NCBI GenBank assembly: GCA_047967505.1 | Contig: CM106538.1 | DNA length: 64,000 bases | Source of the DNA: Dipteris shenzhenensis | Taxonomy: Eukaryota | Strand: one strand, 5' to 3' | Part shown: positions 40,864-64,000 of the stretch, piece after piece | Position numbering within the stretch: the stretch's first letter is position 1 | Layout: every line of letters begins with the position of its first letter | Notes under the pieces: model-generated | Told to the model about the DNA's origin: nothing | Databases searched by the model: none | What the model saw: the letters and a program-made list of their open reading frames with translations, nothing else | Made by a program: the position numbers and the translations under genes

Positions 40864-40920
<57 letters not shown>

Positions 40921-40947: not shown

Positions 40948-40983
<36 letters not shown>
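40864..40983. repeat. Compound microsatellite (TC)n(TA)n(TATATG)n(TG)n
   Basis: Directly visible. Confidence 0.95.
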
Positions 40984-40984
<1 letters not shown>

Positions 40985-42597
40985 CTGGGGAAATTGTTCC
41001 AACTTCTCAATTGATTCGACATCTTGGCTATCCTCTAGGCTGGGGGCTCACTCGTTCTCAACAAACTGATTGGGTGCTCACAAAGTTGAGGGCAAAACTT
41101 GAATATTGGAAGCTTGCATTGCATGTTCGATTGCGAATAACGCAATCCATTTTGATAGCATACATACAATTCTATCTGCCTCTCATTATGTTCACTAAGG
41201 CAGATTTGGTTTCCTTTATGTCTGCTATCATGGAGATTTTGTGGTGTTCAAAAATGACAAGAAAAGTCTCAGATTACTCTCTATGCATCGTCTCTGCTCT
41301 CCAAAGATGCACGGGGGTCTGAACATTCTCAATATTCAAATGCATATACTTGCTCACAGAGGGAAAATGATGTTGCAGTTTATGCAAGGGGATGAGCCTT
41401 GGGCTTTCATGATCCGCTCTCTTTTGTTGCATATTGATACTTCTGCTTTTGGGCATTGGCAACCTACACAGTGGGATTTTCTATTTGGCTCTATTCAAGT
41501 CAAGATCAGAGGCTGCTCTTTTGTCTCTCGTTTGCTTCTTGATTAGAAGCATATTTTATCCCACTTGGAATGGCATGGCAGGGATTCTTTGTCGGGAAAT
41601 TCCTTGAGGGTTGAGAATATTTATTGGTCCCAAGTATTCCACCCTCCTTTGGCTATACAAGAACCCAGGCATTCTTATTTTATATCTTTCAAAGGCATTC
41701 TTCTGTGGCAGATGTACTTCAGGATGATGGCACTCTTTTATCTTTTTCTATGGCTGCTAGCAAATATGGTTTGGGAGCTCATTGTCGTCCGTTATGGCAT
41801 AAAATTTCCGAAATGCTTCAACCTTTCTTGCCGGTACCTCGTTTGGAACTTCAGGATAGGCTTGAGGATTGGACTCTACATTCTTCTTCCTCTTCATCTG
41901 GTCCTTTGAAGCTCTCACATATCACAGTGCCTTCTCTGTATAAAGTGTTGTTACTTTGGCCTTGGATTTCTGACAGAGCAAATTCTGTTTGGCATATGGA
42001 TCGCCCACTAAAGTGGTGGAGAAAGCGGCTGCGTCTCCTTTGGCATTATAAAGTCCCTCTTCGGCAACAGCTATTCCTTTGGCGAGTCCTACTTGGCATG
42101 TTTCCATATGGGTAGTTTACTTGCGCATATACATATTGCTCCAGCTGTTTGCCACAGATGTCTACATTCTGCTGAATCTGTGCTTCACATCTTTTGGCAC
42201 TGTCCACACACTTGTGATTTCCTTGCTCTCATTCGATAGGGGCTTCGAGCGAGATTTCCTACTGTTACTTTTGGCAGGTTCTTCTGGTTATTTGGTTTTC
42301 ATCCAGCTAGACAGGGTTTTTATTTATTTTTTGTTTGGGTGGGCTACTGGGCACTGTGGACTCTATGGATGGACAAAAATCATAGTCTTTGGTGATCCTA
42401 CTTTTTCATCTTTTGTTTTTTTCAAACGATCTCTACGGCAATCATTTTATGATTGCTTTCAGACTCATTTGGTTGATCATGATGTATATATAGCTTATAC
42501 TGAGATTTTCAGTTGAGTAGTAGTTACTCTGCTTTTGAAGTAACTATCAATGTAATTATTTTATAGCAATAAAGTATTTATTCTTACAAAAAAAAAA
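40984..42597 (+). mobile_element. 5'-truncated L1-clade LINE (same family as 58739-64000) inside (TG)n
   Basis: PGEIVPTSQLIRHLGYPLGWG..AYTEIFS*, with frameshifts; A10 tail at 42588-42597; (TG)n on both sides. Confidence 0.93.
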
Positions 42598-42667
42598 GTG
42601 TGTGTGTGTGTGTGTAAACGCATACACATACACATACACATACACATACACGTACACGTACACATAC

Positions 42668-45600
42668 TTTTTTTTGTGAATCTAGTAACTATATTATTAA
42701 CATGAAATCAAGGTACATAACATTAGACTCCAAAAGAGAGCCTAATGGAAGAACTCAAAAACAGTCAGAAAACACTTCAAGGCTAGTAGCATCCAAGTCC
42801 TTTGTAGCATAACTATCATATAGGGATTGCTTGAGGGACATTTTGAAGAAAACATATGCCTGAGGGAACTGTTGGCCCATCTTGGAATGCAATCTCTGTG
42901 TCCAAATGGTCCATAGTACCCAGAAACGTGTCTAGTGAAAGAAAAGGAGGAATGGAGACATCTGAGATGAGAGGCATCCAAACATCCAGAAGAGTTTCCC
43001 AAGTCTGATAGAGGGAAACCGAAGCCGCAACAAATGAGAGACATGAGTGATCAATATCCGAGAGTGCGGGCAAGACCATAGTAGATGGGGAACTGTCTCG
43101 CGGTGATGAGAGCAACGGGGGTAGGAAGGGGAAGCAATGCGACGTGCTGCCAATTTCACCCCAATGGAAAAAGCTCCCACTATACATCTCCAAAAGAAAA
43201 GCCTCTGTTTCAATGGCAATTTGGCTTTCCAAATTTTCATGAGTCGTGATTGCCACCAAAATAAAGGCCTATCCAGATTCCAAAGAGTGTTGGCATGCTT
43301 ATCAATCCATGGTGGTGGAAGAAGAAATCTGTAGACTATCGAGGAGGCCAGATTATGCATGGAAAGGGAATAGGTAGCAGGAGATAAGGAAGTCAAATTC
43401 CAGTCCAGTAATCTGTCCTGTGCAAACAGTGGAGGAACAGGAACAAATGGTTGTAACATAGTTGAAAGTGTTCTCCAAATGGACCTATGATGTAGACCCA
43501 AGGAGAATGTCCTGCAAGCTTGTGGAAATGAAAGCATATAACCTTGTTGATCCACAACATCTCCAACAAATCTTATGCCCAATTTCATAAGATTATATGC
43601 TTTAATAGGTGCCTGTAAAGCGAGAGGCGATTCAAACACCTTGCTCCAATGGATGCTTTCCAAGCGAAGCGAATTACCATGATGAGAAGAAGCACCTGTC
43701 CATTTAGCATAAGAGAGAATTCTCTTCCAATCATGAATAAAAGCAGTAGAAACAGGACAACCAGGAATTTTCCCTTGAAATGTGGTCATGACTGCTTCCC
43801 AGTGATCTGTATTCCAATGCCCATATGCATGGGATGTCATGTTTCCACACATGGCTGCTAACATAATAGCCCATGGCTGTTTTTGCTGAAAAAAATCAGC
43901 AATCATAGTGCTCTTTCTTGCCAGCATGTGAATCTGAAGATTGAGAATATTCAGCCCCCCATGGGTCTTAGGTGAGCAAATAAACTGCATGGGTAGTAGT
44001 CGCAAAGCCTTTTTATGAGATTTGCTTTTCCAAAATATCTCCATAGCCTGGGATATATAGGAAGCCAAATGCTTAAAAGACCAGGGAAGAAGAGGCAGAT
44101 AAAACTGCACATATGCCATAATGATGGATTGTACTATCCGAAGTCGAACATGCAGAGGCCAAGTGGACAAATGCGAGTATTTCAGCTTCTTGTTGATCTT
44201 TTGAAGCAGCCAGTCGAGCTGTTGTTGCGGGGTAATATTCCAGCCAATGGGATACCCTAGATGCCTCACAATAGTATGGGAAGAGATGATGTGGCCTGGC
44301 CAAAGAAGTATATGCCAATCAGCTTCTTTCAATGCTAGGAGATTTGATTTCTGAAAATTGATATGCAGTCCAGCATCTAAGCCAAAATCATTCAGAGTAT
44401 GCATCAAATGAGAGAGGTCACTTTGACAATTCTTGGGCATAAAATATGAATCATCAGCATATGCCTGTGCAAGAAATGACTGTGCCCCTGGAATTTGCAA
44501 GCCATGAAGCTGCCCTGTATGTACAAGATGATCCATGTGCAACAGTAACGGATGGGTAGCAATGGCATACAGCAAGGAACTAAGAGGGCAACCCTGTCTC
44601 ACTGAGCGGGTCATAGTCCAGGTTCTTGTCAACCCACCATCAATTAAACACTGCGCAGTGGCATGAGAATAGAGCCAGTAAATAATATGGACCAGCTGAG
44701 GGCCAAATCCCAATTTATGCATAGTCTGAGAGATGAAATCCCAATGGACAGTATCAAATGCTTTCGCAATGTCCACTTGCAGAATGAGAACGTCTTGTTT
44801 GGAATATTTGGCATACTCAATTGCAAGCAAAGCATTGGAGATATTGTCAGTAATCTGCCTTCTGGGAACAAACCCATACTGCCTGGGATGAAGTCCTGCT
44901 TGCAAAATGAAGCGAACCCTGAGGACAATCATTTTGGCAATGAGTTTGTAAATAACTGGCATAAGAGATATGGGCCGCCAATCAGCCATAGTCTCGCACA
45001 ATCTTTTTTTGGGGATCAATTTGACAAGGCCATGTTTCCAAGAAGGAGGGAGAGATTGTTCTGCCCAAGCATGATTGATCATTAGAAGAAGAGTGTTCTT
45101 GAGATCACCCCAAAATGCACGGAAAAATTCAACAGTCAATCCATCCCAGCCAGGAGAGCTGCCTTTACGTAAATGACTTAAAGCATCATCCAGTTCATTA
45201 AGCATAAAGGGCTGCTCCAATGCATGAGCCTATTCCCGAGACAATATAGGTTGAACGTGCATAAGAAATTGAGATCTGGCTGCATTCACTTGCATCAAAT
45301 GATCAGGTTGAGGAGCAAAGGGATGCTGGAAATGACTAGAACATTGCAATTCCAATTCTGATTTGGAAGTGGTCCAAATACCATCATCTTTCTTGATCCT
45401 GCAGATGGCCTCCTTTCGCCTATCCGCATGGAGGCTTTTAAAAAAGGCTTTGGAGGAGCAGCCCTTATTTAAAAGGGGTTTCATGCGAGCTCGGATTTGC
45501 CACTTCTTTAATTTGCGAAGATCATTTTGATGGATGATATGAACCGCATAAGCACAAGAATCCTGTTCAGAGGAGGTAAGCTGCCTATGAGAACTGATTA

Positions 45601-46892
45601 CATCCATTTGTTGCTTGTGAGATTGAGCCCATTTCAGCTTAAGCCTGAGGTTTCCCATGTAACTCCGTCCATAATCTTGAATAACAGCCTGCAAGCGATG
45701 AGCAAGACTGATCCAAGCAAAATCCATGTCCTCCTGAGCATGTAAGAGGAGGGGGCAGACAGCCACTCTCACCATGTTCTGAAATTGTTGATGAAGCAGA
45801 TAAGCACTGTTCAAGCTCTCTTCGATCTGTTGCTCTATTGTTTTCCTTTTCATCTCCCTGCGCATCCCAGTAGATGTAGGCGACGACCAAAGAAAGGCAT
45901 ATCATCTGCCAAACGTGTTGTAGATAATGTCAAGCATACTGGGAAGTGATCAGATAGCAAGAGGGAATGATCAACCCATAGTGCACATGTAAAACTAGCA
46001 TACTGGTGAGCATGCAGCAAATACCATCTGTCAAGTCGAGCCCGGTAGTGAGTAAAGGCATTGTGATGATATGTATAACCCATATCTCTATCCCTTGTTG
46101 AAAGCCATAAATCTTCTGCATTCAAGGGTGAAAGCATATCTTCCCAATGTCGGAGCTCAGTGGGGATCATATGAGAACGATGAGTGGTATTGTCTTGAAT
46201 GGCAGGCGAGTTATTGAAGTCTCCACACAAAAAGGCATTGGACGACCATGGATATTGTTTGAGGGAGTCCCACATTCTAGCTCTTGTCGCAGAAGTCTGA
46301 GAGGCATAAATAGATGCTATTTCATAGAGATCAGCATGATAGATGCATCTGATCACCATCCATCGACCCTGAGGGTCATTGTAAGCAACCGTGGGCTGCA
46401 TATCATGTTTTACTAGCATGCAAACCCCCGAAAAATGCATTGTATCAGCATAAAAGATATCATATCCAGCATAGTGGCCTTGCTGGCCAGCCAAGAAGTG
46501 TTGATTGTGTTCCTGTAAAGAGATAACATCGGGGTGCATTCTATGTACATAGTGCTAGAGAAGTCTCCACTTATTGACATTGCAAAGACCCTGAACATTG
46601 TATGTAATGCAAGTAATTGAAGTAGACATAGAAGATATGTACATCGGGGTGCATTCTATGTACATAGTGCTAGAGAAGTCTCCACTTATTGACATTGCAA
46701 AGACCCTGAACATTGTATGTAATGCAAGTAATTGAAGTAGACATAGAAGATATGTACAGTCAAACCAAAAAGCATAGTAAAGTATAAGCTGTCAGGCCTC
46801 AGCCATGACATCAACATCCACCTGGCCTCCTGGATCATTAGCTCTATGATCCTCATCATTGTCACATACAGGGATGCCCCTCTTTAAGACAT
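42668..46892 (-). mobile_element. L1-clade LINE (second family), 5'-truncated shortly upstream of ORF2, with 16-bp TSD
   Basis: APE domain (YNVQG, LQEHN, CGDFN, RLDRWY, SDHFP), RT (SPGWDG, WRPISL, DIAKAFD, VRQGCPLS, YADD) and zf-RVT. A8 tail; TSD gtacacgtacacatac at 42652-42667 and 46893-46908. Confidence 0.95.
46526..46758. repeat. Perfect 115-bp tandem duplication spanning the L1 ORF2 start
   Basis: acatcggggtgcatt... starts at 46526 and again at 46641. Confidence 0.95.
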
Positions 46893-47309
46893 GTACACGT
46901 ACACATACACATACATGTACATACACACACACATACATACATACATACATATGTATGTCTATATGTATAAAACTTAAAATTGACCTATGAATTGACCAAG
47001 GGTAGGGTGTAGGGATAGCCTTCGTAGGCTTGTACCTTCACTTCAGTTTTAACGTTTTTGCAGCGATACACTTAAGTTTAGCATCAGCTCGTGCCCCCTT
47101 GCACTCACATTTCTATCCCTTGGTTTCACACAACCCTACATGTAGGCGAGTTATAGGTAGAGTGTGCATCACAAAGATGTTATCAAAAGTGAGCAGCACT
47201 ATTGGGGTTAAATAGGGGAGCTCTCTCTCCCCCACCCTTGTTCACCTCTACGTGAGGAGTAGGCTTCTTTTGGGGATACCCTAGGAGATCGAGGATCTCT
47301 GGCACGATC

Positions 47310-48900
47310 TATCTTACCCGTCCTGCTATATGGAGAGGATGTGATGCTCATCTTGCATACAATAGAAGGATATAGATGCTGTTTTGGCAGCATTGCAGGC
47401 TCTCTGTGAGAGCCGTGACAAAAAGATCAACCTAGTTAAAACCACGGTTGTGATCTTCAGCACTTACTGAAGCTCAGCTCCAAAGTGATATTTTCACACT
47501 TGTAGAATAGCCGGTTGGGATACTGAGATCATATGTACACTTGAGGCACACCTTCACTGGTCCTAAGTTTACCATGAATTTAGTGGCACAAGCACTCTTG
47601 ACTGAGGCCATGCATCAGTATTGAGACTAGAGACACGGTGTTGTCAGAGAGACTTCCAGCACTGAGCACAAAATTACTTCTTTTTTATTCCCTCGTTTGA
47701 CCAGCAACCTTATATAGGTACTTTGTGGGACTTTTTGAACTTTTTGGACGGTAGGAACTTTTTGTATGGTAGGAACGTTTTGGACTCAGAGAGGTTTTTG
47801 GGTAGTGATGAGGACATTAAGGGGGGTACTTCAGTCAGGTATTTTGGCTGCCAGGGTGGTGTGGGTATCTCTCCTTCACAGTAGTTTGCTCTTTTGTTCG
47901 AGAATATCAGCAAGAAACTTCTCTTTTGGAGTTCAGCCAAAACTTGATCTTGCTTCCAGGGTGGTCTAGGTACTACTAGCCATAGCGATGAGTGGACTCA
48001 TTTTGAAAGACTATAAGTCATGATGCCATCTCCTATGATTTGGGGGAGTAGGTATACTCCACACGACATTATTTTGGCATTGTTTGCTGCGAGACCCCTC
48101 CATATAAGTGCGTCATTCTAAATAATCACCTATCTAGAATGGGTCAGGCATTTCGGTTAGACAGATGCAGGTTAGAGACCACCATGGAGGTCCTCTGATT
48201 GACCGAGCAGCTTAAGATGTGCAATGGTGATATGCACGAATCTCTAGATGGTTCGATTGCAGCCTTTTTCTATTGACCATTTATCACTATATCAATACTC
48301 CTAGATGACCGTTTCTTGTGTTTGACACATAGCAAGAGACTCATTAGATCATCTGGAATGACCTATGGCAAGTATAGATCAGATATCTCTCGCTCAGCCA
48401 CATGGGACTAACATGGCTTACTATTGGAGAGATTTCTCCACTTGCAGCTTCATTTTGGCACCAGGATTATCTACACATCCATCTCCTTCATGCAATATGG
48501 ATTACTATGGTCCAGATCAGGGACCTCATTTGATAGATTCCAAATTAAGGCAGGTTGGAAGATCACAGCCACAGGACGCCATAGAGGCTTGAGGCTCTGC
48601 ACCCATGTGACACACATGAGGGGGACACTAAGGAGCATGTTCAAATGTGATGTTCCATGTGTTATGAGGTCAGAAAAAAGATACCACTGCCTTTTCTCCC
48701 ATGGATACACATATATGAGCAGAGCCATTGACTACTTATACCATATCACGAGACATGGCCCTTGGCAGCAAGAGATCACAGGCTTCTTCACACGAGAAGA
48801 AGTGGATGGGAGATGTTGGGATCAAGACCTTTATTTTTAAGGCACGCTAGGTCTGCTGGAGAAGGACACAAGCCTCGTGAGCACCCATCCCATAAACTAG
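47310..48900 (+). mobile_element. Highly decayed RTEX-like RT/3' region
   Basis: LPVLLYGEDVMLI..INLVKTTVVIFS; colinear with 39050-40300. Confidence 0.6.
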
Positions 48901-49469
48901 AAACCTGCAAGAAAAGAATTTCATGATTTGAGGAGTTCCAATCATATCCTGTCATGTGTCCTATGTCATGTCTCATGCATGCATAATTTGACTTTGCATT
49001 GGCCTCTCTAGGATTCCAATCGGAGTCATGGTGTCTTTGAAACATGTCCGAAATCTATTGCTGACGTCCTCTTGCTAGTTCTTTAAGATATGATAGACAG
49101 CTCTAGCTCCCCTCATATGGGGTGTACTTTTATGATGATTCTGATTTCTGCTGCCCCATACAAAAGAAATCAGGTCCTGCTTTTGCATTTCCTTTTCCTA
49201 GGATGGTTTTTATCTCCTTTCCTTACTGCCTTTTGTTTGGGAGTGCCTGGCATTTTGGACAAAATTTTCTATCATATGGTATTTCTCTAGATCTTGTACT
49301 TCCTTGCACATAACAAAAGGCATTTGAATGTTTTCATCGTTTTATAAAACTTGATGGAGAATAAAAAATAAACCTGTGATGTCTTATTTGAATGTGAGAT
49401 TTAGTGTTTGTGTTTTGAGGTGATACGAGTAGCTAATGGAGACTTGACTTTTCTTAGTCCTATTTGTAG

Positions 49470-49766
49470 GCCGAGCAAGAGATAAAATTTCAGCTGGATG
49501 CAGAATTATGTCTTACAGAACCTCATGTGGCTCAAATCGTTGCAAACTCATTGACATTGGATTGTGCGTTTTTTCTTGGGAATAGTATGCCAATTCGAGA
49601 TGTTGATATGTATGCCCTTGGAACAATACATAAGCAACGAAGCCCAGTCTCTGAGCTTCGTGCCCTTCCAGAATTAGCAGTACGAACTGCAGGAAATCGT
49701 GGAGCAAGTGGAATTGATGGAATTCTTAGCACGGCCATAGGGTTTGCAGCTGGCAGTAGGCAGCGG
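49470..49766 (+). CDS. PHYLLO: PHYLLO exon C (MenD), phase 0-0
   Basis: ttgtag acceptor, gtaaat donor; 297 nt. AEQEIKFQLDAELCLTEPHVA...FLGNSMPIRDVD...GNRGASGIDGILSTAIG, with the MenD NSxxIR and NRGASGIDG motifs. Confidence 0.95.
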
Positions 49767-49960
49767 GTAAATATCTTTTTGATAGGTGTTCTTTTACATG
49801 AGCTACATGCATACATGCATACATTTATTATTTTTCTTGGGGTGTCTGATGTTTGATAGCACTTGCATAAAAATACAAAAAATAGATTATTTTGGGATGT
49901 GGCTTAATGTACTATAGGTTTTGTTCAGTTATTTTCTTCACATGTTCATAAGAACCATAG

Positions 49961-49963
<3 letters not shown>

Positions 49964-50043
<80 letters not shown>

Positions 50044-50490
50044 TCTTTTTTAGATAGTGAAAGATTTGATTGATTATATTACAAGAATAGTGACCTCAAA
50101 AAAGGGGCGCTAGAAAATACATCAATTGAAGATCTCAGTATAAGCCAAATATACATCCTGATCTATTTGGCGAGTCTGCAAGCAATCAAAGAAAGATTGC
50201 TGCAGAGAACGCTTAAAGAAAGCAAACAAAGAAAAATTGGGATCACTAAATACTTTACAATTACGGTCTGTCCATAAAGTCCAAAGTCCCTAATATCGAG
50301 CCTAAAAAAAGAAACACACACACACTTTTTTTTAGTGAAATCTTATATTTAGGTGTGGGAAACCCCGCAAAGAGGTAAAAACCCACCAATAAGTACAAAG
50401 GAAAAATTTACAAGTTAAACCTCAGAGCAAAAATTACATCAACTGAAAATTTCAGTATATGCCAAGTCACACACACACACACACACACAC
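49964..50490 (-). mobile_element. (TC)n(CA)n tract carrying two stacked L1 3' stubs (50044-50313 and 50326-50467)
   Basis: Stub 1 encodes LWTLWTDRN..FFKRSLQQSFFDC..AYTEIFN*; stub 2 encodes LAYTEIFS*. Each has an oligo-A tail and is bounded by (CA)n. Confidence 0.85.
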
Positions 50491-51383
50491 AAAACACGTA
50501 ATAACAATCATGAAGAACAAGCAATCTTCGGCAAAGCAACAAAGTATTACCATTGTGGAAGGATGTGTCAATACCACAATGATTTGCAGATTGAAGAACA
50601 AGCTAAAATGTAAATATTGCAAGAAGCTAGCACACAAAGAAGAAGACTTCAGATTGAAGAATGAGCAGGCCAACTACGTAGGGGTCGTCGACAAGGAATG
50701 ACTAGAATGAGTGACAACAACAAAATGAATTAAGAAGCAAAGCTTAGTAGATAAAGCTCACCACATGAGTCGATTTTGGTTTTTAGTTATCAAACCTGAC
50801 CACTTGAGAGTAGCTATCTAATGACCCAATGGAGGTATTGATCATCTTGCAATACCACAATTGACCACCTTAAGTAGCAACGACTTTTCTTTTGCAAACT
50901 CGCATCTGACCATCTTACAGTAGCCAATCCATTATGAGACCAAGGGAAGGTATTGACTGTTGTGGTCCCATGAGCACAGAGATGGAGGCAAAGGTATGAG
51001 TAAAGGTATGAAGCAAGGGCATGCTATCACATGACATGGAGATGTTATCCCACATGTGAGCAAGTATATGCAAGTATGTATCCACTCTTACAAAGGGGAG
51101 GTTCATTTCAAGCAATAATATCAAGCGAGCTCTCAAGTCTCTCTATGAATACAAGTCTCAATCTTGTAACCTAATTATGCTCGAGTCTATGCCATCTAGT
51201 TTAGTTCTTCATCGTGTGTAGATTTAAGTTGCAGCCACCGTAGATTAGCTCTAGTTAAGCACACTTACCTTTAGAGGCACCATAGCCGTATCTCTTAGGT
51301 GCTCATGTTTTCTCATTGAGTACTTGAGGGATAGACTATGATCGAAGTGGATGTCATGATATATGGTGTGTGTGTGTGTGTGT

Positions 51384-51467
51384 CATGAGGCTCTCTGCTT
51401 TTTTGAGACCCTCATGTAAATTTTGCTGATAATATAATCATGGATTTACCCAAAAAAAAAAAAAAAA
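51384..51467 (+). mobile_element. 84-bp polyadenylated stub (probable L1 3' UTR) inside (TG)n
   Basis: (GT)9, hairpin CATGAGG..CCTCATG, A16, then GTGTGT. Family assignment is inferred from architecture only. Confidence 0.6.
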
Positions 51468-53329: not shown

Positions 53330-55000
53330 TAATTTCTAACTACCAATTATTCTAACCCGAATCACTGGGAGGGTAAATTGATGAACTAATTCTATAGCTC
53401 ATTGCTACTTCTCCCTTGATAAACAATGGATAAGATTTTATGTCCATCAGCTTGAAAAACTTTACTTGCTTAATCTTGCCAATAGGTTAGGATGTCAGCC
53501 ACATGATCTTCTATCGGATAATGTATGAATTTCTATTTCATTGCTTAGAATCTTTCATTTATAAAGTAGTGTTGCATTTCAACGAATCCTTGGCCAATTC
53601 AATAAAGCTTTGGTTGTCCATCAATAATGGAGTTGGATCGTTTTGAGTAAGCCCTATATCATTTTAGATCCTTCTCAACCAGATAGCATCATAGGCTGCA
53701 TTTGAAGATGCTGTTTATTCAGCTTCTATGGAGTATAAAGAAATCGTGCTTTGTTTCATATTGCTCCATGGTATCAGGCAAGCGGTGAGATCCAATGCTG
53801 ACACAATATCTAAGAGTAGATCTTTTGTCATCTAAGCACCTTGCCCAAACACTATCAATAAACCGTGATAGTTTTGAATCATTGCATCTCTTGTATTCAA
53901 CTCCACATGTCAGTGTTTGCTTCCTTGATGTAGCTAAGTATCCTCTTAGCTGCCTTCTAATGGCTTTCTTTTTAGTCAGCCATATGTTGGAACATGGTAC
54001 TAACCAGAAAAGCTATGTCCAGTCTAGTGGTGGCTAAATATATCAAGCTACCTGGCAGAAAGTACCATATACTCTAGAACTATCCTAATCCTTTCATAAA
54101 TTAATCGGCTTGCAATCATTAATTTTTGAAAATATTGCTCAAGACAAGGCTCCATAATCGTTGGCTGTTCCTGATGTACTAAATTTACTATCTGAAGGAT
54201 CCCTGACTTGCCCCTCTCTGGATCTTCCCTCCCTTCTTTGTTGTCCTATTAACTTTTAAGGTTTCTTTCTTGCACTGGCCAGCTCCATGATAAAGGGCCC
54301 ATTCACTAATCCAGAATCCCATCTGACCTAATGTCATATGATTGCTTCAAGGGGCTGCTGTTACTTATCTCTTTAAAGGTTTCTCATATGGCATAATTTA
54401 CTCACTCACTTGATAGCTTATTAAAGCAGCTTCCTTTATCATGCCCCCCCCCCGTTTACAGTTTTTTGTCCTTGCTTAATGTTCCCATTTTAGTATATCA
54501 AGTTGGCTACATAAACTCATTGACCTGTACGCTACATAAATTCCTCTTCAATCTATGGCTATGTTTCTCTCCTAGAGTTCTCTTGAGCTCTATTTTCAGG
54601 AGCCTAGCAATCTTCTATGTATTTATGATTGAATTATGCTTCTTCATCTTGTATGCTAAGGAGGTATCCTTTTGCAGTTGAGTAATGATCGGAGCATTTA
54701 CCATCAAATTAAAGTTCTATAAGCCCTAATCTTTGAACACCATGTCTGAATATTGCCATTGGCCACATCTTGTAATGTCTTACTACAGGAGAAAGTCTCA
54801 AATTTACCGCAAATAGAACTTTTAAAGTGATTCTTTCTCTCTTCCAAAGGTCCATATTGTTATTTCGCATTATGGATCTAGCTTGGTTAGGCAAATCTCT
54901 GTATTGAGAAGCACTCTTTCCTGCATCTTTGATTGTCTTTCCAGATATGGAGGCTAGGTTGCACTCACTCAAGAATGTGGTACACCTTCACAAGGAATAT
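53330..55000 (-). mobile_element. Decayed Ty1/copia relic (RNaseH recognisable)
   Basis: PWSNMKQSTISLYSIEAE*TASSNAAYDAIWLRRI near 53660-53780; the rest is heavily eroded and the boundaries are rough. Confidence 0.6.
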
Positions 55001-55389
55001 ACTAGTCTCATAAATTTACACAGCTTTATCTAATTGCAAAGAAAATTGCGACTCAATCCATTTATAACCACTCCTATTGAGTTACTCTCATGCGAATCAA
55101 ACCATTACTTGAATTGGCTTGTGGGCAGTACCATGTAGTGAAAGTATGGTAAGTGGCACGGAGGGGGAAGAGCTACTCAAGCATTTTCAGAAGTAACAGA
55201 TTGTTTCCTAGTTTGTTACTCAACATTGTTACTGTATGGGTATTATATGCATCTATGCATGTTGTTTCTTCCTTTTTGGATTTGACATATTATTTTCTGA
55301 GATAATTTGATTAGTCTGGGCAACCGTTAGTAGTCCCTCCCTCCCCATCCACTAAGTTTGAAGCAGATTGTATTTTTGTGTGTGACTAG

Positions 55390-55457
55390 GTGGTGCTTCT
55401 TGTAGGAGATGTATCTTTTCTTCATGATACAAATGGGTTGACACTTTTAAACAAAAG
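55390..55457 (+). CDS. PHYLLO: PHYLLO exon D (MenD ThDP-binding motif, first half), phase 0-2
   Basis: actag acceptor, gtaagc donor; VVLLVGDVSFLHDTNGLTLLNK. Too short for the ORF track; translated by hand. Confidence 0.92.
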
Positions 55458-55604
55458 GTAAGCTTGGATGGTTTTCTACAGATCAAGATAGGATTTAGAT
55501 TTGATGCTAGTTGCATACAAGTAGGATCAGGGCTACATGTTTTCATAGGTTGAAGTCGATGCACATTGACTCTAATGCATTTTTTCGTTTTCCTTTTCAT
55601 CAAG

Positions 55605-55763
55605 AGCTGGACAGCCACCGGTCGTCGTTATTGTTGTGAATAACTTCGGAGGAGGAATTTTCAGCCTTCTCCCTGTAGCTAATACTGCATCAGGGGCGGC
55701 TTTTACGAATTTTTTTTCTACACCACATGATATTTCAGTTCGACAATTATGCCTTGCACACAG
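55605..55763 (+). CDS. PHYLLO: PHYLLO exon E (MenD ThDP-binding motif, second half), phase 2-2
   Basis: Pyrimidine tract plus caag acceptor, gtactt donor; (R)AGQPPVVVIVVNNFGGGIFSLLP...FSTPHD...LCLAH. Completes the GD...NN ThDP motif and NNxGGGIF. Confidence 0.92.
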
Positions 55764-56463
55764 GTACTTTACCTTGATACTCTGGGCTTCTAAAATGCGT
55801 AGAAAGGCTTTATCAACCCAAGTCTCTGAACTTATCAAACATGCCTCAGAAGCTCACATATTGTCTGCCAAGCAAGTAGCATCCCTCATGAAAAATTGTC
55901 TAGGGGTCTTCTGCTCCACATCATAACCTGCTTACAACTAAAGATGAAGAAATCAATAGAGTTTTTATGGACATCTTTTTTCAGATCCCACTTCTAAATT
56001 AACCTTTTCGCAATGAATTTTCACGATTTGTTATCTGCTCATGCTGCATTTTACAGGATGTATGTGACCAGGTCATTTAGTATATGGGTATCATCCATGA
56101 GATAATATGCCTTGATGACTTGAGTTTTAGATGCTCACATAAGGAATTTTAATGGTAAAATATAACAGTGATGAATTTATGTGAAGCTATGAAATATTTT
56201 CAATTCCCATGTGTCACTTTTGGCAGGATTAAAACGTGGAAAAAAGGATTTAATTAGTGATCACTGTTTTGTTTTGCGGACCTTTTCTGTTTTCAAAGCA
56301 GATTATTTTTTTCTGAGAATCCTTTTTGTAAAATGCGGTTTCATCTTCCGCAAGTTAGAAACTGCCAGTACCAAATATAAGAAAGTATTTAATGGATCAG
56401 AGACTAGTAAGAATTGCTAAATCTTGTATAGTAGTTAAAATATTTTTTATTTGTTCTGTTCAG

Positions 56464-56589
56464 GGTCAATCATACACTTGTGCGTTCAAGGCAACAATTA
56501 GAGGATGCACTTTATTTCATCCAGAAACAGCAGTTAAGCTGGATAGTAGAAGTAGAGAGTAATATTGAAGAAAATGCTGAGTTTCACAG
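56464..56589 (+). CDS. PHYLLO: PHYLLO exon F (MenD C-terminus), phase 2-2
   Basis: ttcag acceptor, gtggtc donor; (R)VNHTLVRSRQQLEDAL...WIVEVESNIEENAEFH. Confidence 0.88.
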
Positions 56590-56702
56590 GTGGTCTATTC
56601 AGCCATGAATTATTCTCAGCGTTTGCAGATCTTAAACGCCAGTGTTTTCATGCCATTATGTTAGAAATGATACCTTACTAACTTGTATATAAGAAACTGC
56701 AG

Positions 56703-56831
56703 ATTGCTTCAGTCATCAACACGTCAAGCTATGAAGCATGCTCTTCAAGTAGTTCACAAAACCGAAGACATATTTGGCTCTGAGAAGATCAGAAGCTGGA
56801 CTATTGAAGATGCTGTATATTTTCATTATAG
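56703..56831 (+). CDS. PHYLLO: PHYLLO exon G (MenD-MenC linker), phase 2-2
   Basis: ctgcag acceptor, gttcat donor; (R)LLQSSTRQAMKHALQVV...AVYFHY. Keeps the frame between exons F and H. Confidence 0.8.
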
Positions 56832-56975
56832 GTTCATATGACTGACGGTTTCTTTCTTTAAACACATTTGTTTTCATATGCTATAGGCACGTTGGTAGCT
56901 TTACCTCACATATATGCATCCTGTTGTCTCCTATAATATTCAGGATTTGACTTCTGCCTTTTTCTGATCAATCAG

Positions 56976-57093
56976 GTTTCCACTCTGTGCTAGTCCAACT
57001 GCAAAAGTTGAAGTAAAGTTAACTGAAGCAAATTATAGGGAGGGCTTCATACTCTGCATTACACTTTGCAATGGGTTGTCTGGGTTTGGTGAG
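56976..57093 (+). CDS. PHYLLO: PHYLLO exon H (MenC / o-succinylbenzoate synthase N-terminal domain), phase 2-0
   Basis: atcag acceptor, gtacgg donor; (R)FPLCASPT...YREGFILCITLCNGLSGFGE, the enolase-superfamily capping-domain REG...GxGE pattern. Confidence 0.9.
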
Positions 57094-57213
57094 GTACGGT
57101 ATAAAGTTCAACTAGCAATAGATATGGCGTTGGAGATGTTGCCATAGTTTTGCAAATCTTTTGTACAAGACCAAAGAGACATAGAGTCACTTACCTGTGA
57201 AAACCCTTTTCAG

Positions 57214-57372
57214 GTTGCTCCACTAGGGGGACTTCATAAAGAGGACATGATGGATGTTGAGGAGCAATTAAAACTGTTAATGCAACTGTTGAACAGAGCA
57301 AAGCTGAATAACACTCTAGCTTTTCTGAATGGAAGCTTTTCTGCGTGGCTGTATAATTGTGTAGGGATAATG
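57214..57372 (+). CDS. PHYLLO: PHYLLO exon I (MenC), phase 0-0; the gene continues beyond the window
   Basis: ttttcag acceptor, gtaagc donor; VAPLGGLHKEDMMDVEEQL...LNGSFSAWLYNCVGIM. Completes GFGE|VAPL, typical of MenC. Confidence 0.9.
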
Positions 57373-57409
57373 GTAAGCTATTCTGATGTCTTGCAGTAAA
57401 ATATACTAT

Positions 57410-57470
57410 CTGTATATATATGTATGTATGTATATACATACATGCATACACATATATACATATAGACACA

Positions 57471-57519
<49 letters not shown>
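57410..57519. repeat. (TA/TATG)n-(CA)n compound microsatellite about 40 nt after exon I
   Basis: Directly visible; it anchors the L1 stack that follows. Confidence 0.95.
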
Positions 57520-57521
<2 letters not shown>

Positions 57522-57588
57522 AGTTTATACTACACAAAAGCTTCCCCTAAATGGGGAGCTCAATATTACATCAACAGAACATCTCAGT
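57520..57588 (-). mobile_element. L1 3' stub of about 70 bp between (CA)n tracts
   Basis: Minus strand reads TEMFC* then a hairpin (compare TEIFC*/TEIFS* of the family). No polyA is retained. Confidence 0.6.
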
Positions 57589-57598
57589 ACACACACAC

Positions 57599-58624
57599 TT
57601 TTTTTGGTAAAATCCAGTGTATTTATATTCTCATAAATTTACAAGATGGGAAGTCTCCCACACACTGACATTAGACTCCAAAAGAGAGCCCAATGGAAGA
57701 ACTCAAAAACAGGTAGAGAACACTTCAAGGCTAGTAGCATCAAAGTCCCTTGCAGCAAAACTATCATATAAGGATTGCTTGAGGGACATTCTGAAGAAAA
57801 TATATGCCTGAGGAAACTGTTGACCCATCCTAGAATGCAGTCTCTGTGTCCAAATGGTCCATAGTACCCAAAAGCGAGTCCAGTGAAAGAAGAGGAGGAA
57901 TGGAGACATCTGAGATGAGAGGCATCCAAACATCCAGAAGAGTTTCCCAAATCTGATAGAGGGAAACCGAAGCCGCAGCAAATGAGAAATATGAGTGATC
58001 AATATGCGAGAGTGTGGGCAAGACCATAATAGGTGAGGAACTGTCTCGCAGTGATGAGAGCAACGGGGGCAGGAAGGGGAAGCAATGCGGCGTGCTGCCA
58101 ATTTCACCCCAATGGAAAAAGCTCCCACTATACATCTCCAAAAGAAAAGTCTCTGTTTCAATGGCAATTTGGCTTTCCAGATTTTCATGAGTCGTGATTG
58201 TCACCAAGATAAAGGCCTATCCAAATTCCAACGAGTGTTGGCATGCTTGTCAATCCATGGCGGTGGAAGAAGAAATCTGTAGACCTTCGAGGAGGTCAGA
58301 TTGTGCATTGAAAGCGTATGGGTAGCAGGAGGTAAGGAAGTCAAATTCCAGTCCAGTAATCTGTCCTGTACAAACAGTGGAGGAACCGGAACAAATGGCT
58401 GCAACATAGTTGAAAGTATTCTCCAAATGGACCTATGATGCAGACCCAAGGAGAATGTCCTGCAAGCTTGTGGAAATGAAAGCATACAACCTTGTTGATC
58501 CACAACATCGCCAACAAATCTTATGCCCAATTTCATGAGATTGTATGCTTTAATAGGTGCCTGTAAAGCGAGAGGCAATTCAAACACCTTGCTCCAATGG
58601 ATGCTTTCCAAGCGAAAAGAATTA
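57599..58624 (-). mobile_element. 5'-truncated L1 (same family as 42668-46892) inside (CA)n
   Basis: Near-identical peptide MKIWKAKLPLKQRLFFWRCIVGAFSIG..CPRC..H..WSC; A7 tail; (CA)n on both sides. Confidence 0.95.
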
Positions 58625-58643
58625 CACACACACACACACATAC

Positions 58644-58723
58644 TTTTCCCCCTTTTTTTTGGGTTAAAATTTTGATACTTTATATTACAGTTTGGCTATC
58701 CCCAAAAACGTGATATGCCAAAT
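58644..58723 (-). mobile_element. 80-bp A-tailed stub between (CA)n tracts (probable L1 3' UTR)
   Basis: Hairpin TTTGGC..GCCAAA, tail A8G5A4, then GTATGTGT. Assignment by architecture only. Confidence 0.55.
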
Positions 58724-58815
58724 TACACACACACACACTTTTTTTGTGAGAAGAAATCTTTTATTTCGATGAAATAATTACATTCATAGCTGCTTCAAAA
58801 CGAAGTAGCTACTAC

Positions 58816-61800
58816 TCAACAAAAGATCTCAGTATAAGCTGTATACACATCCTGATCTATCAAACGAGTCTGAAAACAATCGTAGAATGATTGTTGCAGA
58901 GATCGTTTGAAAAAAAGAAAGGATGAAAATAGTGGATCACCAAAGACTCAATGATTTCTATCCATCCATAAAGTCCATAGGGTCCAATATCGCACCCATA
59001 CAAAAAATAAATCAAAACCCTGTCTCTGGGGATGAAATCCAAACAACCAGAAAAATCTGCCAAAAGTGACAGTAGGAAATCGTTGTCGAAGCCTCTGTCT
59101 GATGAGAGCAATGAGTGCAGAAGTGTTTGGACAGGACCAAAAGATATGGAGCACTGATTCAGTAGAGTGCGAGCATCGGTGACAAACAGCTAAAGCAATA
59201 TGTCTGTGTGCAAGTAACTGTCCAGATGGAAAAATGCCAAGGAGAACTCGCCATAGGAAAAGCTGTTGTCGAAGAGGGACTTTGTAATGCCAAAGGAGAC
59301 GCAGCCTTTTCCTCCACCACTTCATTGGACGATCCATATGCCAAACAGTATTTGCTCTGTTGGAAATCCAAGGTGGAGGTAATAACACTTTATATAGTGA
59401 TGACACTGTAATATGTGAAAGCTTTAGAGGACGGACATATGAGGAAGGAGAGCGTAAACTCCAATCCTCAAGCCGATGCTGAATTTCTAAATGAGGTACC
59501 GGTAAGTACGGTTGGAGCATTGCTGAAATTTTATGCCATAAAGGACGATAATGAGCTCCCAAGCCATATTTGCGAGCAGCCAAAGAAAAAGATAGAATTG
59601 TGCCATCATCCTGAAGTACATCCGCCACATATGAAATGCCTTTGAAGGAGAGAAAATAAGAACGACGGGGTTCTTGTATGGCCAAAGGTGGATGGAATAC
59701 TTTGGACCAAAAGAGATTCTCTGCCCTCAAAGAGTTGCCCGAGAGTGAGTCCCTTCCTTTCCATTCCAAGTGGGATAGAATATGTTTCCAATCAAGAAGC
59801 AGAGAAGAGACAAAAGGGCATCCTCTGATCTTGCCTTGGAGAGAGCCAAATAAAAAATCCCACTGAGTAGGCTGCCAATTCCCAAAAGCAGATGTATGAA
59901 GATGTAATAAGAGAGAGCGGATCATAAAAGCCCAAGGCTGATCTCCTTGTAGAAACTGCATCATCATTTTTCCCCTGTGAGCAAGCAAATGCATTTGAAT
60001 ATTGAGAATGTTCAGACCCCCGTGCATCTTTGGAGAACAGAGACGGTGCATGGAGAGTAATCTGAGACTTTTCTTGCCATGTTTTGAACGCCAGAAAATT
60101 TCCATGATAGCTGACATAAATGAAACCAAATCTGCCTTAGTGAACATAGTGAGAGGCAGATAAAATTGTATGTATGCTATCAAAATGGATTGTGTAATTC
60201 GCAGACGAACATGTAATGGCCAAGTTGCAAGCTTCCAATATTCAAGTTTTGCCCTTAACTTTACTAACACCCAATCAGTTTGTTGTGAACGGGTGAGTCC
60301 CCAGCCTAGAGGATAACCAAGGTGTCGAATAAATTGAGAAGCAGGGATAATTTCCCCAGGCCACAAAAGATTGTGCCAGTCCTGTGCATGTAAAGGCAGC
60401 AATTTTGATTTTTGAAAATTGACCTGAAGGCCAGCAGCCAATCCATATGTAGAAAGAGCATGCATAATCATGGACAGATCAGCCCGAGTATTTTTTGGAG
60501 AAAAGAAAGAATCATCAGCATATGCTTGAGCAATCATGCTGCGACTGCCAAGAATCTCCAAACCGTGCAGCTGGTCAGTGTCTAAGAGGTGATCTAGATA
60601 TTGAAGCAGTGGATGAGTGGCTATGGCAAAAAGTAAAGCACTCAGTGGGCATCCTTGTCTGACAGAGCAAGCAAGAGTCCAGGATGGAGAAATATCTCCT
60701 GAAAGTATACAGGCAGCTTCACTATCTTGATATAGCCAATTAATGAGTTGCTGCATTTTTGTGCCAAAACCCAAAGCCTGCATAGTCGATGAGATGAAAT
60801 CCCACTGAACTGTATCAAAAGCTTTGGCAATATCAACTTGCAATAACAAAACATCGTGCTGTGTGTATTTGGCATATTCAATTCCAATGTAGGCATTGGC
60901 AATGTTATCGGTGATATGCCTACGCGGGACAAAGCCATATTGTGCAGGATGCAACCCATCATGTAAAAACCCCTTTAGCCGAGCAACAATCATTTTGGTA
61001 GTGACTTTGTAAATTACGGGCATAAGAGTGATAGGTCTCCAGTCTGCCAAAGACTCACAAATTTGTTTTTTAGGAAGGAGTTTAACAAGACCTCTCTTCC
61101 ATGTGTCTGGCATTTTCTGATGTTGCCATGCAGCATTCACCATATATAGTAATGGATGCTTCAAAATAGGCCAGTATGCTAGAAAAAACTCGACTGTTAA
61201 ACCATCCCATCCGGGGGATTTCCATCTGCCACATGATTTGATTGCATCTGACAGTTCGCTCTCAGTAAAGGGTTCCTCCAATTCCAAAGCTTGAGTAGAG
61301 GAAATTATTGGAGAAACATTTTGCAATAGTAAATTCCGAGCAAGCAAAACCTGTTGCGAGGGCGGAGCTGCAGAGCCAAATTGCTGGGAGAAGTGATGTA
61401 CACAAACAGAGGCAAGCTGTGACCGTGAAGTAGTCCATGATCCATCGGGCATAAGCACTCGGCAAATTTCTGTTTTGATTCTCCTCTGATGCAAACTTTT
61501 GAAAAATTCTTTGGAAGAGCAACCTTTATCTGTGAAGGCTCTTTGTCTTGCTCTAGTCTCCCATTTTGCCAGTTTCCTGTGATCATTTAATTTAAGACAA
61601 TGTCTAGCCTGACATAGTGTGTTTTGCTCATGCATGGACAACGAACGATGATGACTGAGTTCAGTGAGGTCTTGACAAGTAGACTTGGCCTGAGTAATGG
61701 TTTCCCTCAGAGTCTTCATGTAAGACTTGCCATAAGCTCTGATCACCATTTGCATTTTAGAAATAAAAGAAGCCCAGGCATCATCAGCATGAAGATAGCT

Positions 61801-62630
61801 GCTAGAGGAAAGACAATGAGCTGCTTCAGTAACCATTGCCTTGAATTCAACATGTTGCAAATAACTATTGTTGATATTAGATGTCGCCTTTGTGGCAATC
61901 TATCTTCTGGCATCTTATGAAAAGATAAACGCAGCCATAGTGGTGCATGGTCTGAATGCACAAAGGCATAATCAATCCATATTTTGCATGCGAGATCCCC
62001 ATTTTGTTGGGGAGCGACACTATACCAACGATCCAGTCTTGCCTGATAAGCGGAAAGAGCATTATGTTGAAAAGTGTAGCCCGGTGACAAAGGCTGCAAT
62101 TCCTTCCAAAGGTCAACCAGATTTAAATGCAAAAGTAATTGAGACCATGCATGCCTTTCAGGAGATAACATATGATCGTGGTTGGAAGTGTTGTCTCCCT
62201 GTTGTGGAGCATTATTGAAATCCCCACATATGTAGGCATGATATCTCCACGGGTATTGTTGCATAACATCCCAAATTACAGTTCTGTCCCGAGATGACTG
62301 AGGTGCATAAACTGAAGCAAATTCAAACACCTCTCCTCTAATAATGCATTGGAGAATAAGCCATCTACCTTTGTTGTCATTTAACGCAATGACTGGTTGA
62401 AGCTCATGTTTGATCAAAAGGACAACCCCTGAGAAAGAGTGCTCCCCAGCATAGAAAATGTCATACCCACAGAAGTGTCCTGTCTTGCCTGCATAAATAT
62501 GTTGGTTGTGCTCTTGTAATGCCACTATGTCAGGCTGAAATCTGTTGATGTACAGCCACACAGATTTCCATTTCCTACTGTCACATATACCCTGTACATT
62601 GAGTGTAAAACATGTGATGTGAGCAGTCAT
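58816..62630 (-). pseudogene. L1 ORF2p (APE-RT-zf-RVT) with two frameshifts, near 61860 and near 58950
   Basis: LNVQG, LQEHN, SVYAP, CGDFN, RLDRW, SDH in one frame; a 970-aa RT frame with YADD and CHRC..H..WSC; AYTEIFC* in the shifted C-terminal segment. Confidence 0.92.
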
Positions 62631-62685
62631 ATATACAGATATTTATAGTAATGTAACAACTATGTACAGCAGCAAAAGTATGAGG

Positions 62686-63921
62686 TCAGCCTTGCATCTC
62701 TATCTCAGGGTCGAGGCCTCGCCCTTGAGAAGAAGTAGTCACCTGAGAAGTGGACAGCAAGGCAGCAACCTCTTCTTCAGGGAAGAGTGTTCTGCTGGCT
62801 GTTACTGCAGCCCATGTAATCCCAATTCCTGTATTGATCTCTGGGGTGTTTCCGCTAGAAGATGCACCATTCCAAGTGCGGGGGGGTGGAATTCTTCGAG
62901 CAGAAATAACTTTTCTTGGGCTCTGCCAGCCATCAGTTGAAGGTTTCTTTCCTTTGGGCATGGACTGAGTAGCAGGAGGTGAATGTGAAGTGAGATTCAT
63001 ATTGGTAACTACTGAATCTTTGCCTTTTTCCTGACTTCCAGGATGCTGTCTGCTGCTTTTATTTTTGTTGGCAACTGGAGTAGGAGCATCTTTAGTAGGC
63101 ATGTGTACCGGCAAGGTGACATGAGGCATTTTATGTGGGTTCAGTGGGCACTGTGAAGCCATGTGTCCAAACTTTTTGCATTCAAAACAGGCCCCTGCAA
63201 ATAAACCCCATTTGAGTTTATAAAATGCACTCCCCATGTTCACATTGTTCACCGTGACTGAATAAGAGTCCGGTGTGGGATTATCAGTATCCCAGAGAAT
63301 GCAAAATCTGTTTGAATTGCCATTTGGCCGTGGTGGGCAGACCACTTTACCTAAAGAGGCTGCAATTTTAGGCAAAAGTGAGGCCATGCATTGGGGGAAA
63401 TCAACGACTTCAACCCAGACTGGGCATCTGTGTCTGATTAAAGCCTGAAAGTCCCTTGTGGGAGACCATGGCAAGACATGCACCATTTGCTGTCCAAAAA
63501 AAAGAGGTGAATGTTCCAAAAGCATTTGTCTGTGGATCTCATCCACCATGATAACCTCGAAAAAGCCCCTGGCTGCATAGTGTACTTTACGAACAAAAGA
63601 GCCAGCCAAAGTGCGTGTGAGCCAGTTGCCTATCTCTGCAGCAGGTGGCATCCGGCCTGGAAAGAATAATATAACTGCATTCTTGGCATACTCTCTGACT
63701 GGATCCACAATTTCATCGACCTCAACCATGAGGCCAACTGAGGGAACCGATTCTTTCCAGTCTTTTCTCGTATCTGCAAATCCTTCATGCATTACATCAT
63801 ACACTAGTTGAGCCTCAAGTGTATCATGCATTGGGTCATGCTGACCCTCAACCTGCTTTTGCTTCTTGCAGGGAGCCGAGCGCTCCTTTTGAAATGTTTT
63901 TTCATATGAATACTTTGCCAT
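62686..63921 (-). CDS. L1 ORF1p (DUF4283-like RRM region plus CCHC knuckle), intact, 411 aa
   Basis: GFFEV..PLFFGQQMVHVLPWSP..PVWVEV..IAASLGKV; CFECKKFGHMASQC (CX2CX4HX4C). Confidence 0.9.
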   Translation of the reverse strand: MAKYSYEKTFQKERSAPCKKQKQVEGQHDPMHDTLEAQLVYDVMHEGFADTRKDWKESVPSVGLMVEVDEIVDPVREYAKNAVILFFPGRMPPAAEIGNWLTRTLAGSFVRKVHYAARGFFEVIMVDEIHRQMLLEHSPLFFGQQMVHVLPWSPTRDFQALIRHRCPVWVEVVDFPQCMASLLPKIAASLGKVVCPPRPNGNSNRFCILWDTDNPTPDSYSVTVNNVNMGSAFYKLKWGLFAGACFECKKFGHMASQCPLNPHKMPHVTLPVHMPTKDAPTPVANKNKSSRQHPGSQEKGKDSVVTNMNLTSHSPPATQSMPKGKKPSTDGWQSPRKVISARRIPPPRTWNGASSSGNTPEINTGIGITWAAVTASRTLFPEEEVAALLSTSQVTTSSQGRGLDPEIEMQG

Positions 63922-64000
63922 GACTTGGTAAGAAAAGGAGCTTGAGGATGAAATACCTGTAAGAAGGTGGCGGAAGCCAAAAAAACAGTCCCAAAGGAAA

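Follow-up and report, generated by a model that had tools for sequence, protein, structure and literature searches.

Why do the L1-type retrotransposons in one stretch of fern DNA all lie in CA/TG microsatellites? The stretch is 64 kb of contig CM106538.1 from Dipteris shenzhenensis (assembly GCA_047967505.1), which we call the window, and a first-pass annotation made from its letters had reported nine L1 copies or stubs in it, every one embedded in a CA/TG-type repeat. Here, we confirm this association, which goes far beyond chance, and find good support, within the window, for targeted insertion into (TG)n/(CA)n that follows a strand rule. We propose that the elements are L1-group long interspersed nuclear elements (LINEs) that insert by target-primed reverse transcription (TPRT), preferentially or exclusively, into (TG)n/(CA)n tracts including TA-derived variants (GTATGT), in a fixed orientation and from a nick between C and A. 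We put the probability of this full reading at about 0.68.

Nine L1 pieces in CA/TG repeats

L1 homology, sought across the whole window by blastn with three copies, tblastn with six open reading frame (ORF) pieces and short-word blastn with eleven 3' tails, is confined to nine places. These pieces, c1 to c9, span 23 kb together with their flanking tracts and fall into four loci. They are L1-group LINEs, with an apurinic endonuclease (APE)-type endonuclease (EN), a reverse transcriptase (RT), a C-terminal zinc-binding domain and a plant-type ORF1; c4, c5, c6 and c8 are stubs of 69-142 nt from the 3' untranslated region (UTR). All nine were re-read, and their limits match those first given to within 1-2 nt, with alternative ends for c6 at 57589 and for c8 at 58724 (earlier 57588 and 58723). 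Tandem repeats were mapped over the whole window with Tandem Repeats Finder (TRF). The pieces and their flanks are as follows, L001 being an intact relative described below.

40954-40983, + strand: 5' flank of c1, (TG)15, within a compound (TC)n(TA)n(TATG)n(TG)n tract that runs from 40864
40984-42597, + strand: c1, family A, 5'-truncated in the C-terminal region of the RT; 3' UTR with stem-loop, AATAAA and A10; tblastn match to c9 ORF2 residues 501-970
42598-42615, + strand: 3' flank of c1, (GT)9; junction A10, then GTGT
42621-42667, - strand: 3' flank of c2, (CATACA)n on the + strand and so (TGTATG)n in the sense of the element; junction A8, then GTATGT
42668-46892, - strand: c2, family B; ORF2 (EN, RT, zf-RVT) in three ORF pieces; TRF duplication at 46526-46758
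46893-46951, - strand: 5' flank of c2, imperfect ACACGT/ACATAC/(CA)5/(TACA)n, TG-type on the sense strand; junction with 4/8 mismatches
49993-50040, - strand: 3' flank of c3, (CA)24, continuous with (TC)15 at 49964-49993
50044-50313, - strand: c3, family-A-like 3' stub; 3' end A6-GA, then GTC, then (TG)n; tblastn match to L001 ORF2 residues 1213-1269
50315-50325, - strand: (CA)5.5, from the 5' end of c3 to the 3' end of c4
50326-50467, - strand: c4, 142-nt 3'-UTR stub; junction A8, then GTGT
50468-50491, - strand: 5' flank of c4, (CA)12, with unique sequence beyond
51366-51383, + strand: 5' flank of c5, (GT)9
51384-51467, + strand: c5, 84-nt stub; junction A16, then GTGTGTG
57473-57519, - strand: 3' flank of c6, (AC)23.5, the downstream end of a four-element pile-up
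57520-57589, - strand: c6, stub of ~70 nt without polyA
57590-57598: CA run of 9 nt between c6 and c7
57599-58624, - strand: c7, family B, 5'-truncated in the C-terminal region of ORF2; junction A7, then GTGT; tblastn 93% to c2 ORF2 residues 516-762
58625-58643, - strand: (AC)8-ATAC, from the 5' end of c7 to the 3' end of c8
58644-58724, - strand: c8, stub of ~80 nt; junction A8-G5-A4, then GTATGT
58725-58738, - strand: (AC)7, from the 5' end of c8 to the 3' end of c9
58739-64000, - strand: c9, family A, nearly intact, running off the end of the window; 3' UTR 58739-58947 (A7, AATAAA, stem-loop), ORF2 58948-62630, ORF1 62686-63921

We scored the 8 nt just outside each element, read on its sense strand, against alternating GT. 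Seventeen junctions are visible, nine at 3' ends and eight at 5' ends (the 5' end of c9 lies beyond the window), and 16 of them show at most one mismatch; the exception is the 5' junction of c2, which has four and lies in an imperfect GTAC/GTAT repeat. Such GT 8-mers occur across the window at a background rate of 0.0034 per strand position, which falls to 0.0019 in bases 1-40850, and the chance of the observed pattern is ~1e-10 even if the nine copies are counted as four independent loci. The sense strand of the element is the TG strand in 9/9 copies, as had been claimed, and re-reading of the 3' junctions returned the earlier tally of five, two and two: polyA runs into GTGTGT in c1, c4, c5, c7 and c9 and into GTATGT in c2 and c8, while the variants are c3 (A6-GA, then GTC-(TG)n) and c6 (no polyA; ...AAACTAT, then TGTG). 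The 3' flank begins with G in eight of nine copies and in all seven clean junctions between polyA and repeat, where a G would be expected half of the time in each (p ~0.008). Lengths of polyA are 6-10 nt in seven of eight copies and 16 in c5, with values of 10, 7 and 6 in family A and 8 and 7 in family B.

The repeats themselves tell the same story from the other side. All nine copies sit in CA/TG tracts, although these make up well under 1% of the window, and 10 of the 11 CA/TG runs of at least five units in the window belong to tracts that flank L1 pieces. Where one sequence in more than 20% of flanks is taken to mark a target preference, as an excerpt of PMC4494074 has it, the figure here is 9/9 copies in the window. 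The L1-free exception among the runs, at 37228-37247, is part of (GA)16(GT)10 at 37196-37247, which lies inside a GC-rich tandem-repeat region (36989-37192). Beyond the window, a comparison of sequencing run X1 (41 million letters, share 0.05) with 57521-64000 at 80% likeness, skipping 58615-58674 as a repeat, gave 55 L1-like contigs; none of the 6 of 25 loose ends listed is CA-type, and such ends are indistinguishable from alignment breaks between diverged copies.

Domains and families of the elements

The nearly intact c9 defines the coding capacity of the group. In Pfam, its ORF2 matches Exo_endo_phos (1.9e-10), RVT_1 (2.5e-30) and zf-RVT (1.4e-9), and its ORF1, of 411 aa, matches DUF4283 (7.6e-9), which we take to be the RRM of plant L1 ORF1, together with a marginal zf-CCHC match (4.5e-4; 20.6 bits vs a cut-off of 20.8). 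The c2 ORF2, in its three pieces, matches RVT_1 (1.6e-32) and zf-RVT (2.6e-8), with Exo_endo_phos below the cut-off (8.6e-5). Both are colinear with the intact ORF2 of L001, c9 over residues 1-252 and 254-1269 in two frames with one frame change near 61875. The best match of the c9 EN in the PDB is human L1 EN (1.5e-11), with LN.QG, QE, YAP and GDFN aligned and LDR and SDH motifs further on in an open reading frame, and we presume that the residues of these motifs have the corresponding catalytic roles. All nine LINE chains that it matches in the PDB are human L1 EN, ORF2p or its loop chimeras; R1Bm and TRAS1 EN chains are absent among the matches at E up to 0.01, which is a weak test.

Family A consists of c9, c1 (84.6% nucleotide identity to c9 over 1626 nt) and c3 (73.5% to c9 over 189 nt), and family B of c2 and c7 (93.4% over 958 nt). 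ORF2 identity between the two is ~52-55%, which bears out the earlier statement that at least two ORF2 families share the habit. A block conserved in family A recurs in the stubs c4 and c6, and the nine pieces comprise at least five 3'-UTR types. Every tail from c1 to c9 contains a stem-loop 35-60 nt upstream of the polyA, with pairing kept and sequence differing by type, which suggests that an element protein recognises a 3' RNA structure, as in LINEs of the 'stringent' type. PolyA is present in eight of nine copies, preceded at 9-14 nt by AATAAA in c1, c9 and L001/L002 and by AATATAA-type variants in others, and the points of 5' truncation vary between copies.

Some details of single copies are recorded here. 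The 5' end of c5 coincides exactly with the base of its 3' stem-loop, and the stem-loop of c4 resembles that of L001/L002 (L001 6200-6275). The c8 tail (58644-58665) has an interrupted polyA, A8-G5-A4, before its GTATGT flank. At the 5' end of the EN coding region of c2 there is an exact tandem duplication of 115 bp (46526-46758; 2.0 copies, 100% match). Finally, both c9 (61800-61950) and c2 (45780-45930) shift reading frame at almost matching positions in the EN-RT linker, immediately ahead of a conserved NN.YL motif. We considered a programmed frameshift and rejected it in favour of decay: the change in c9 looks like a simple indel, c2 has extra sequence and stops, and L001 has one open frame. 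The two changes are probably independent decay.

The repeat as target rather than tail

If the elements brought their repeats with them, TG should be restricted to the 3' side of the polyA. Instead, TG-type repeat is found at each of the eight 5' junctions that can be seen, including those of c1, c2, c4 and c5, where no L1 lies upstream, which means that the repeat predates the insertion and is a target, not a carried tail. The poly(A) signals shortly before the polyA likewise fit an RNA that ends in polyA rather than one with a read-through (GU)n tail. At the locus 40864-46951 the repeat has TG polarity on the left and CA polarity on the right, and c1 (+) and c2 (-) are oriented as the strand rule predicts. 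We considered this inverted polarity as a sign of self-carried tails and set it aside, because derivation of this compound repeat from (TA)n accounts for TATG/TG on its left side as well as CATA/CA on its right.

These junctions suggest a model of integration. TPRT extends the cDNA from the 3'-OH that the nick leaves on the bottom strand. A top strand that passes from polyA into GTGT corresponds to a bottom strand that passes from ...ACAC into TTTT, which places the nick after C, between C and A, if the polyA is not templated. We propose that the element RNA is polyadenylated at its normal poly(A) site, that the CA strand would be nicked first, at the bond joining C to A (5'-..CAC^ACA..-3'), and that cDNA synthesis on the polyA would start from the non-complementary ...CAC-3'OH, so that the sense strand of the element would join the TG strand on integration. 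Severe 5' truncation affects most copies. Each insertion would also leave repeat on both sides, exposing the same tract to later hits, which would explain the same-orientation pile-ups c9-c8-c7-c6 and c4-c3.

The first-pass annotation had the APE endonuclease nicking the CA strand after C. Of this, the position of the nick follows from the nearly fixed phase of the junctions, and we infer it from standard TPRT geometry; that the element's own endonuclease recognises the repeat and selects C^A goes a step further and is presumed here. Reverse transcription, in turn, would have to be able to start from a CAC-3' end that does not pair with the polyA.

A second LINE family as internal control

The window contains a second LINE family, which accounts for RVT_1 matches at 5244-7594 and for the RT signal at 5253-7510, the only one outside c1-c9, and has a 58%-identical full-length relative with APE and RT. 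Its pieces are these:

3300-7560, - strand: second LINE family
8810-8870, + strand: second LINE family
20535-20587, + strand: second LINE family
35711-35800, - strand: second LINE family
40816-40886, + strand: second LINE family

The 3' ends of this family run into (CT)n or (TTTC)n at eight tracts (3345, 4102, 4160, 5717, 8850, 20575, 35755 and 40863), and its truncated 5' ends abut (CT)n in the pile-up at 3300-7544. In the window it never abuts CA/TG, and none of the 14 GA/TC-type runs listed there abuts an L1 piece. The two families thus have separate repeats, a pattern that speaks against microsatellites being fragile in general. The second family may carry its repeat as a tail able to pair with the same repeat, or it may target (TC)n as Kibi does. 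Its 3' end lacks polyA and consists of a conserved motif with a short hairpin that leads straight into (CT)n/(TTTC)n; at 3300-7544, four truncated copies stand head to tail, the 5' end of each abutting the (CT)n of the next.

Relatives of the window elements

The best named matches of the c9 ORF2 come from the fern Adiantum nelumboides, at 48-55% identity, followed at 23-35% by turtle, fish (some labelled Transposon TX1) and liverwort, and no angiosperm name occurs among the 120 matches listed. Ten relatives of the c9 ORF1 were found, and all the named ones are from Adiantum. The label 'plant L1' given at first therefore needs narrowing: the nearest named relatives are those of the fern A. nelumboides, and after them come liverwort and animal sequences, some labelled TX1. 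Ten relative loci were found in metagenome contigs, while scans of genome-contig and viral-contig collections (alignment A1) gave none. L001 and L002 represent separate insertions of a single intact family, with an ORF1 of 420 aa and an ORF2 that forms an open frame of 1315 aa, at 49% ORF2 identity.

We placed these sequences in a quick maximum-likelihood tree of 33 rows, built without certified L1/Tx1 references and rooted at the midpoint. In it, c9 joins a group of c2 and two Adiantum proteins (SH-like approximate likelihood-ratio support, SH-aLRT, 92), the L001 group forms the sister clade, and the resulting clade of eight has support 100; this fern clade groups with the liverwort rows, with the animal rows, among them one that bears the label TX1, on the far side of the midpoint root. 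The grouping of c9, c2 and Adiantum is consistent with the TG habit being an old property of the lineage.

Alternative explanations

Several points weigh against our reading. The evidence consists of nine copies at four loci inside 23 kb, the 3' junctions of c3 and c6 are irregular, and priming from ...CAC-3' on polyA would proceed without base-pairing support. The polyA tails are short and alike in length, and a templated A-run would give the same. L001 and L002 sit in non-repetitive DNA, where their polyA meets GTTTTG and GAAAAC and their 5' flanks are not TG repeats. The hairpin-loop region of the EN, which affects target choice according to work on human L1 EN, has the same length in c9, c2 and L001, and no distinguishing feature was found in it. 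The idea of a microsatellite-specific plant L1 lineage accordingly stands for all nine copies of the window and fails for these two 49%-identical relatives: the TG habit maps to one subclade and is missing from 2/2 copies of its sister group. The wider clade as a whole thus does not share it, and it may hinge on the host genome.

Some of these points would be expected if CA/TG tracts were targeted without sequence recognition by the EN, an explanation that we regard as unlikely. By a read-through route, (GU)n transcribed from the (TG)n downstream of a source copy would pair with a nicked or frayed CA strand, the passage from polyA to GT being templated and its phase inherited; by a structural route, flexible CpA steps, Z-DNA or frequent nicks in CA/TG would draw an otherwise unspecific L1 machinery. 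Targeting of this kind would suit the short, uniform polyA of seven of the eight copies (6-10 nt), a habit common to at least five 3'-UTR types, and the absence of the habit from L001/L002 despite a similar EN, and the (CT)n tail in which the second LINE family ends makes pairing of tail and target plausible in this genome. Yet the poly(A) signals lie 9-14 nt before the polyA, as they do at true 3' ends, the A16 of c5 departs from the 6-10 nt found elsewhere, and lengths vary inside both families A and B, while structural attraction would predict neither the strict strand rule (9/9) nor the fixed dinucleotide phase. We also think it improbable that the window is a local peculiarity, a 23-kb nest of microsatellites and LINEs (e.g. 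in introns of one low-recombination gene), with insertion into ordinary AT-rich sites elsewhere. That there are only four loci, that L001 and L002 lie in ordinary DNA, and that Waldo-A/B near CA repeats of Drosophila have been put down to passive accumulation (in an excerpt of PMC3812793) would all be in its favour. Passive accumulation, however, gives proximity and not base-exact, two-sided junctions, a strand rule or a fixed phase; nor does a nest of this kind account well for nine of nine copies in well under 1% of the window, or for (GA/TC)n tracts of the same window that hold no L1.

A further possibility, that the elements make or carry their repeats, is already disfavoured, and we give it very little credence. 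The repeat would then be an (TG)n tail of the element or a microsatellite born from its polyA, or the insertions would be endonuclease-independent events at breaks in fragile repeats. That microsatellites can arise from LINE tails is described in PMC3812793, and the CT-tailed second family shows that tail-carrying LINEs occur in the window. Each form nevertheless conflicts with the junctions. A carried tail does not place TG at the 5' junctions of the variously truncated c1, c2, c4 and c5, which lack L1 upstream; decay of polyA would give A-rich repeats rather than GT directly after an intact A-run; and endonuclease-independent insertion sits poorly with polyA in eight of nine copies and with an intact EN in c9. 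Insertion into a pre-existing (TG)n/(CA)n target from a C^A nick is the explanation that we carry forward.

Comparison with known systems

The comparisons that follow draw on excerpts of the papers cited. APE-type LINEs that target microsatellites include Waldo (ACAY), Mino (AC), Kibi (TC), Koshi (TTC) and Dong (TAA) (PMC3812793), and crocodilian families of the Tx1 clade, which is described as animal, target (TTCC)n/(TTTC)n (PMC4494074). Like c1-c9, Kibi, Koshi and the crocodilian Tx1 families are APE-type, L1-group and microsatellite-specific, with repeat on both flanks; they differ in having (TC)n, (TTC)n and (TTCC)n/(TTTC)n as targets and fish or crocodilians as hosts, where c1-c9 have (TG)n/(CA)n and a plant (PMC4494074, PMC3812793). 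A further likeness is that some of the nearest animal relatives of the c9 ORF2 are labelled Transposon TX1; further differences are the c9 ORF1, of DUF4283 and CCHC type with fern-only named relatives, and the position of the fern clade in our tree, next to liverwort rows and not the animal group. MinoAg1 (AC)n and Waldo (ACAY)n are also of APE type and have an AC-type target, probably with the same logic (PMC3812793), but belong to the R1 clade and to insects, whereas the c9 EN best matches human L1 EN and the elements of c1-c9 carry zf-RVT and polyA. Togen, from the NeSL clade of fish, is (TG)n-specific and so shares its target with c9 and c2 (PMC4640811); NeSL elements have a restriction-like endonuclease (PMC4640811) in place of the N-terminal APE found here, and the likeness is convergent.

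Among plant elements, L1-CS of Cuscuta europaea comes closest: it is a plant L1 that prefers a tandem repeat (the satellite CUS-TR24), and its heterogeneous copies share target sites and break up the satellite arrays (PMC8091179). Its sites, TTCTA/TTTCAA, nevertheless resemble the canonical L1 site TTTTAA and merely occur in the satellite monomer, whereas the site of c1-c9 is a GC-containing dinucleotide with no T-tract (PMC8091179). Ordinary plant L1s share the domain set, the ORF1 type, polyA, 5' truncation and the 3' stem-loop, and in one monocot L1 lineage a 3' structure is conserved (PMC3472496, PMC3747384). They differ in that the excerpts report no microsatellite specificity for them (PMC3472496, PMC3747384), and L001 and L002 behave likewise. 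The same sources describe the L1s of land plants as monophyletic and Tx1 as close to the vertebrate L1 lineage (PMC3472496, PMC3747384). In Ceratopteris, a RepeatMasker-type annotation counts 23,635 'L1-Tx1' elements and gives no analysis of their targets (PMC6890710). The first-pass annotation knew of no account of such a plant L1, and the full-text literature, as distinct from Repbase, Dfam and the supplements of PMC4494074 and PMC4640811, yielded no description of a (CA)n-specific one.

Implications

How did the habit arise? We tentatively suggest, while thinking it rather less than an even bet, that it began long ago in a fern L1 lineage, which would reach back at least to the divergence of families A and B and include Adiantum elements, when the APE endonuclease came to recognise (CA)n/(TG)n and to nick C^A. 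If so, this would be the first microsatellite-specific L1 in plants, convergent with Mino and Waldo of insects and Togen of fish, and reverse transcription on its polyA would have an unusual start, from an unpairable primer. Taken with the (CT)n-associated family, it would mean that several fern LINE lineages are each tied to a microsatellite of their own and shape the landscapes of both repeats.

Retrotransposons that spare their host by using 'safe' repeated sites are known in nature mainly from target-specific LINEs, and to our knowledge such LINEs within the L1 group have so far been described in animals (Tx1 clade). In a plant L1, a dinucleotide-repeat target would extend the strategy to another kingdom. 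A target without a T-tract would bear on how L1-type reverse transcriptases are primed, and related endonucleases with the habit (c9, c2) and without it (L001) would allow the determinants of specificity to be mapped. The elements would also bear on the co-evolution of microsatellites and LINEs in very large fern genomes. A practical warning follows as well: CA/TG microsatellite markers in such genomes may often be LINE junctions.

Host gene and other features of the window

Two exons lie on the + strand near the L1 loci. The exon at 49470-49767 has a partial match to menD (3.1e-16, NCBIfam), and that at 55576-55770 contains an NN.GGGIF-like stretch of a kind known from that enzyme family, although it gave no match; Pfam gave no matches in the host exons of the window. 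The L1 clusters between these two exons, which follow closely downstream of the first, probably lie in an intron of a MenD/PHYLLO-type gene. Elsewhere, at 9554-9812, TRF reports two copies of a 128-bp unit at 94% identity.

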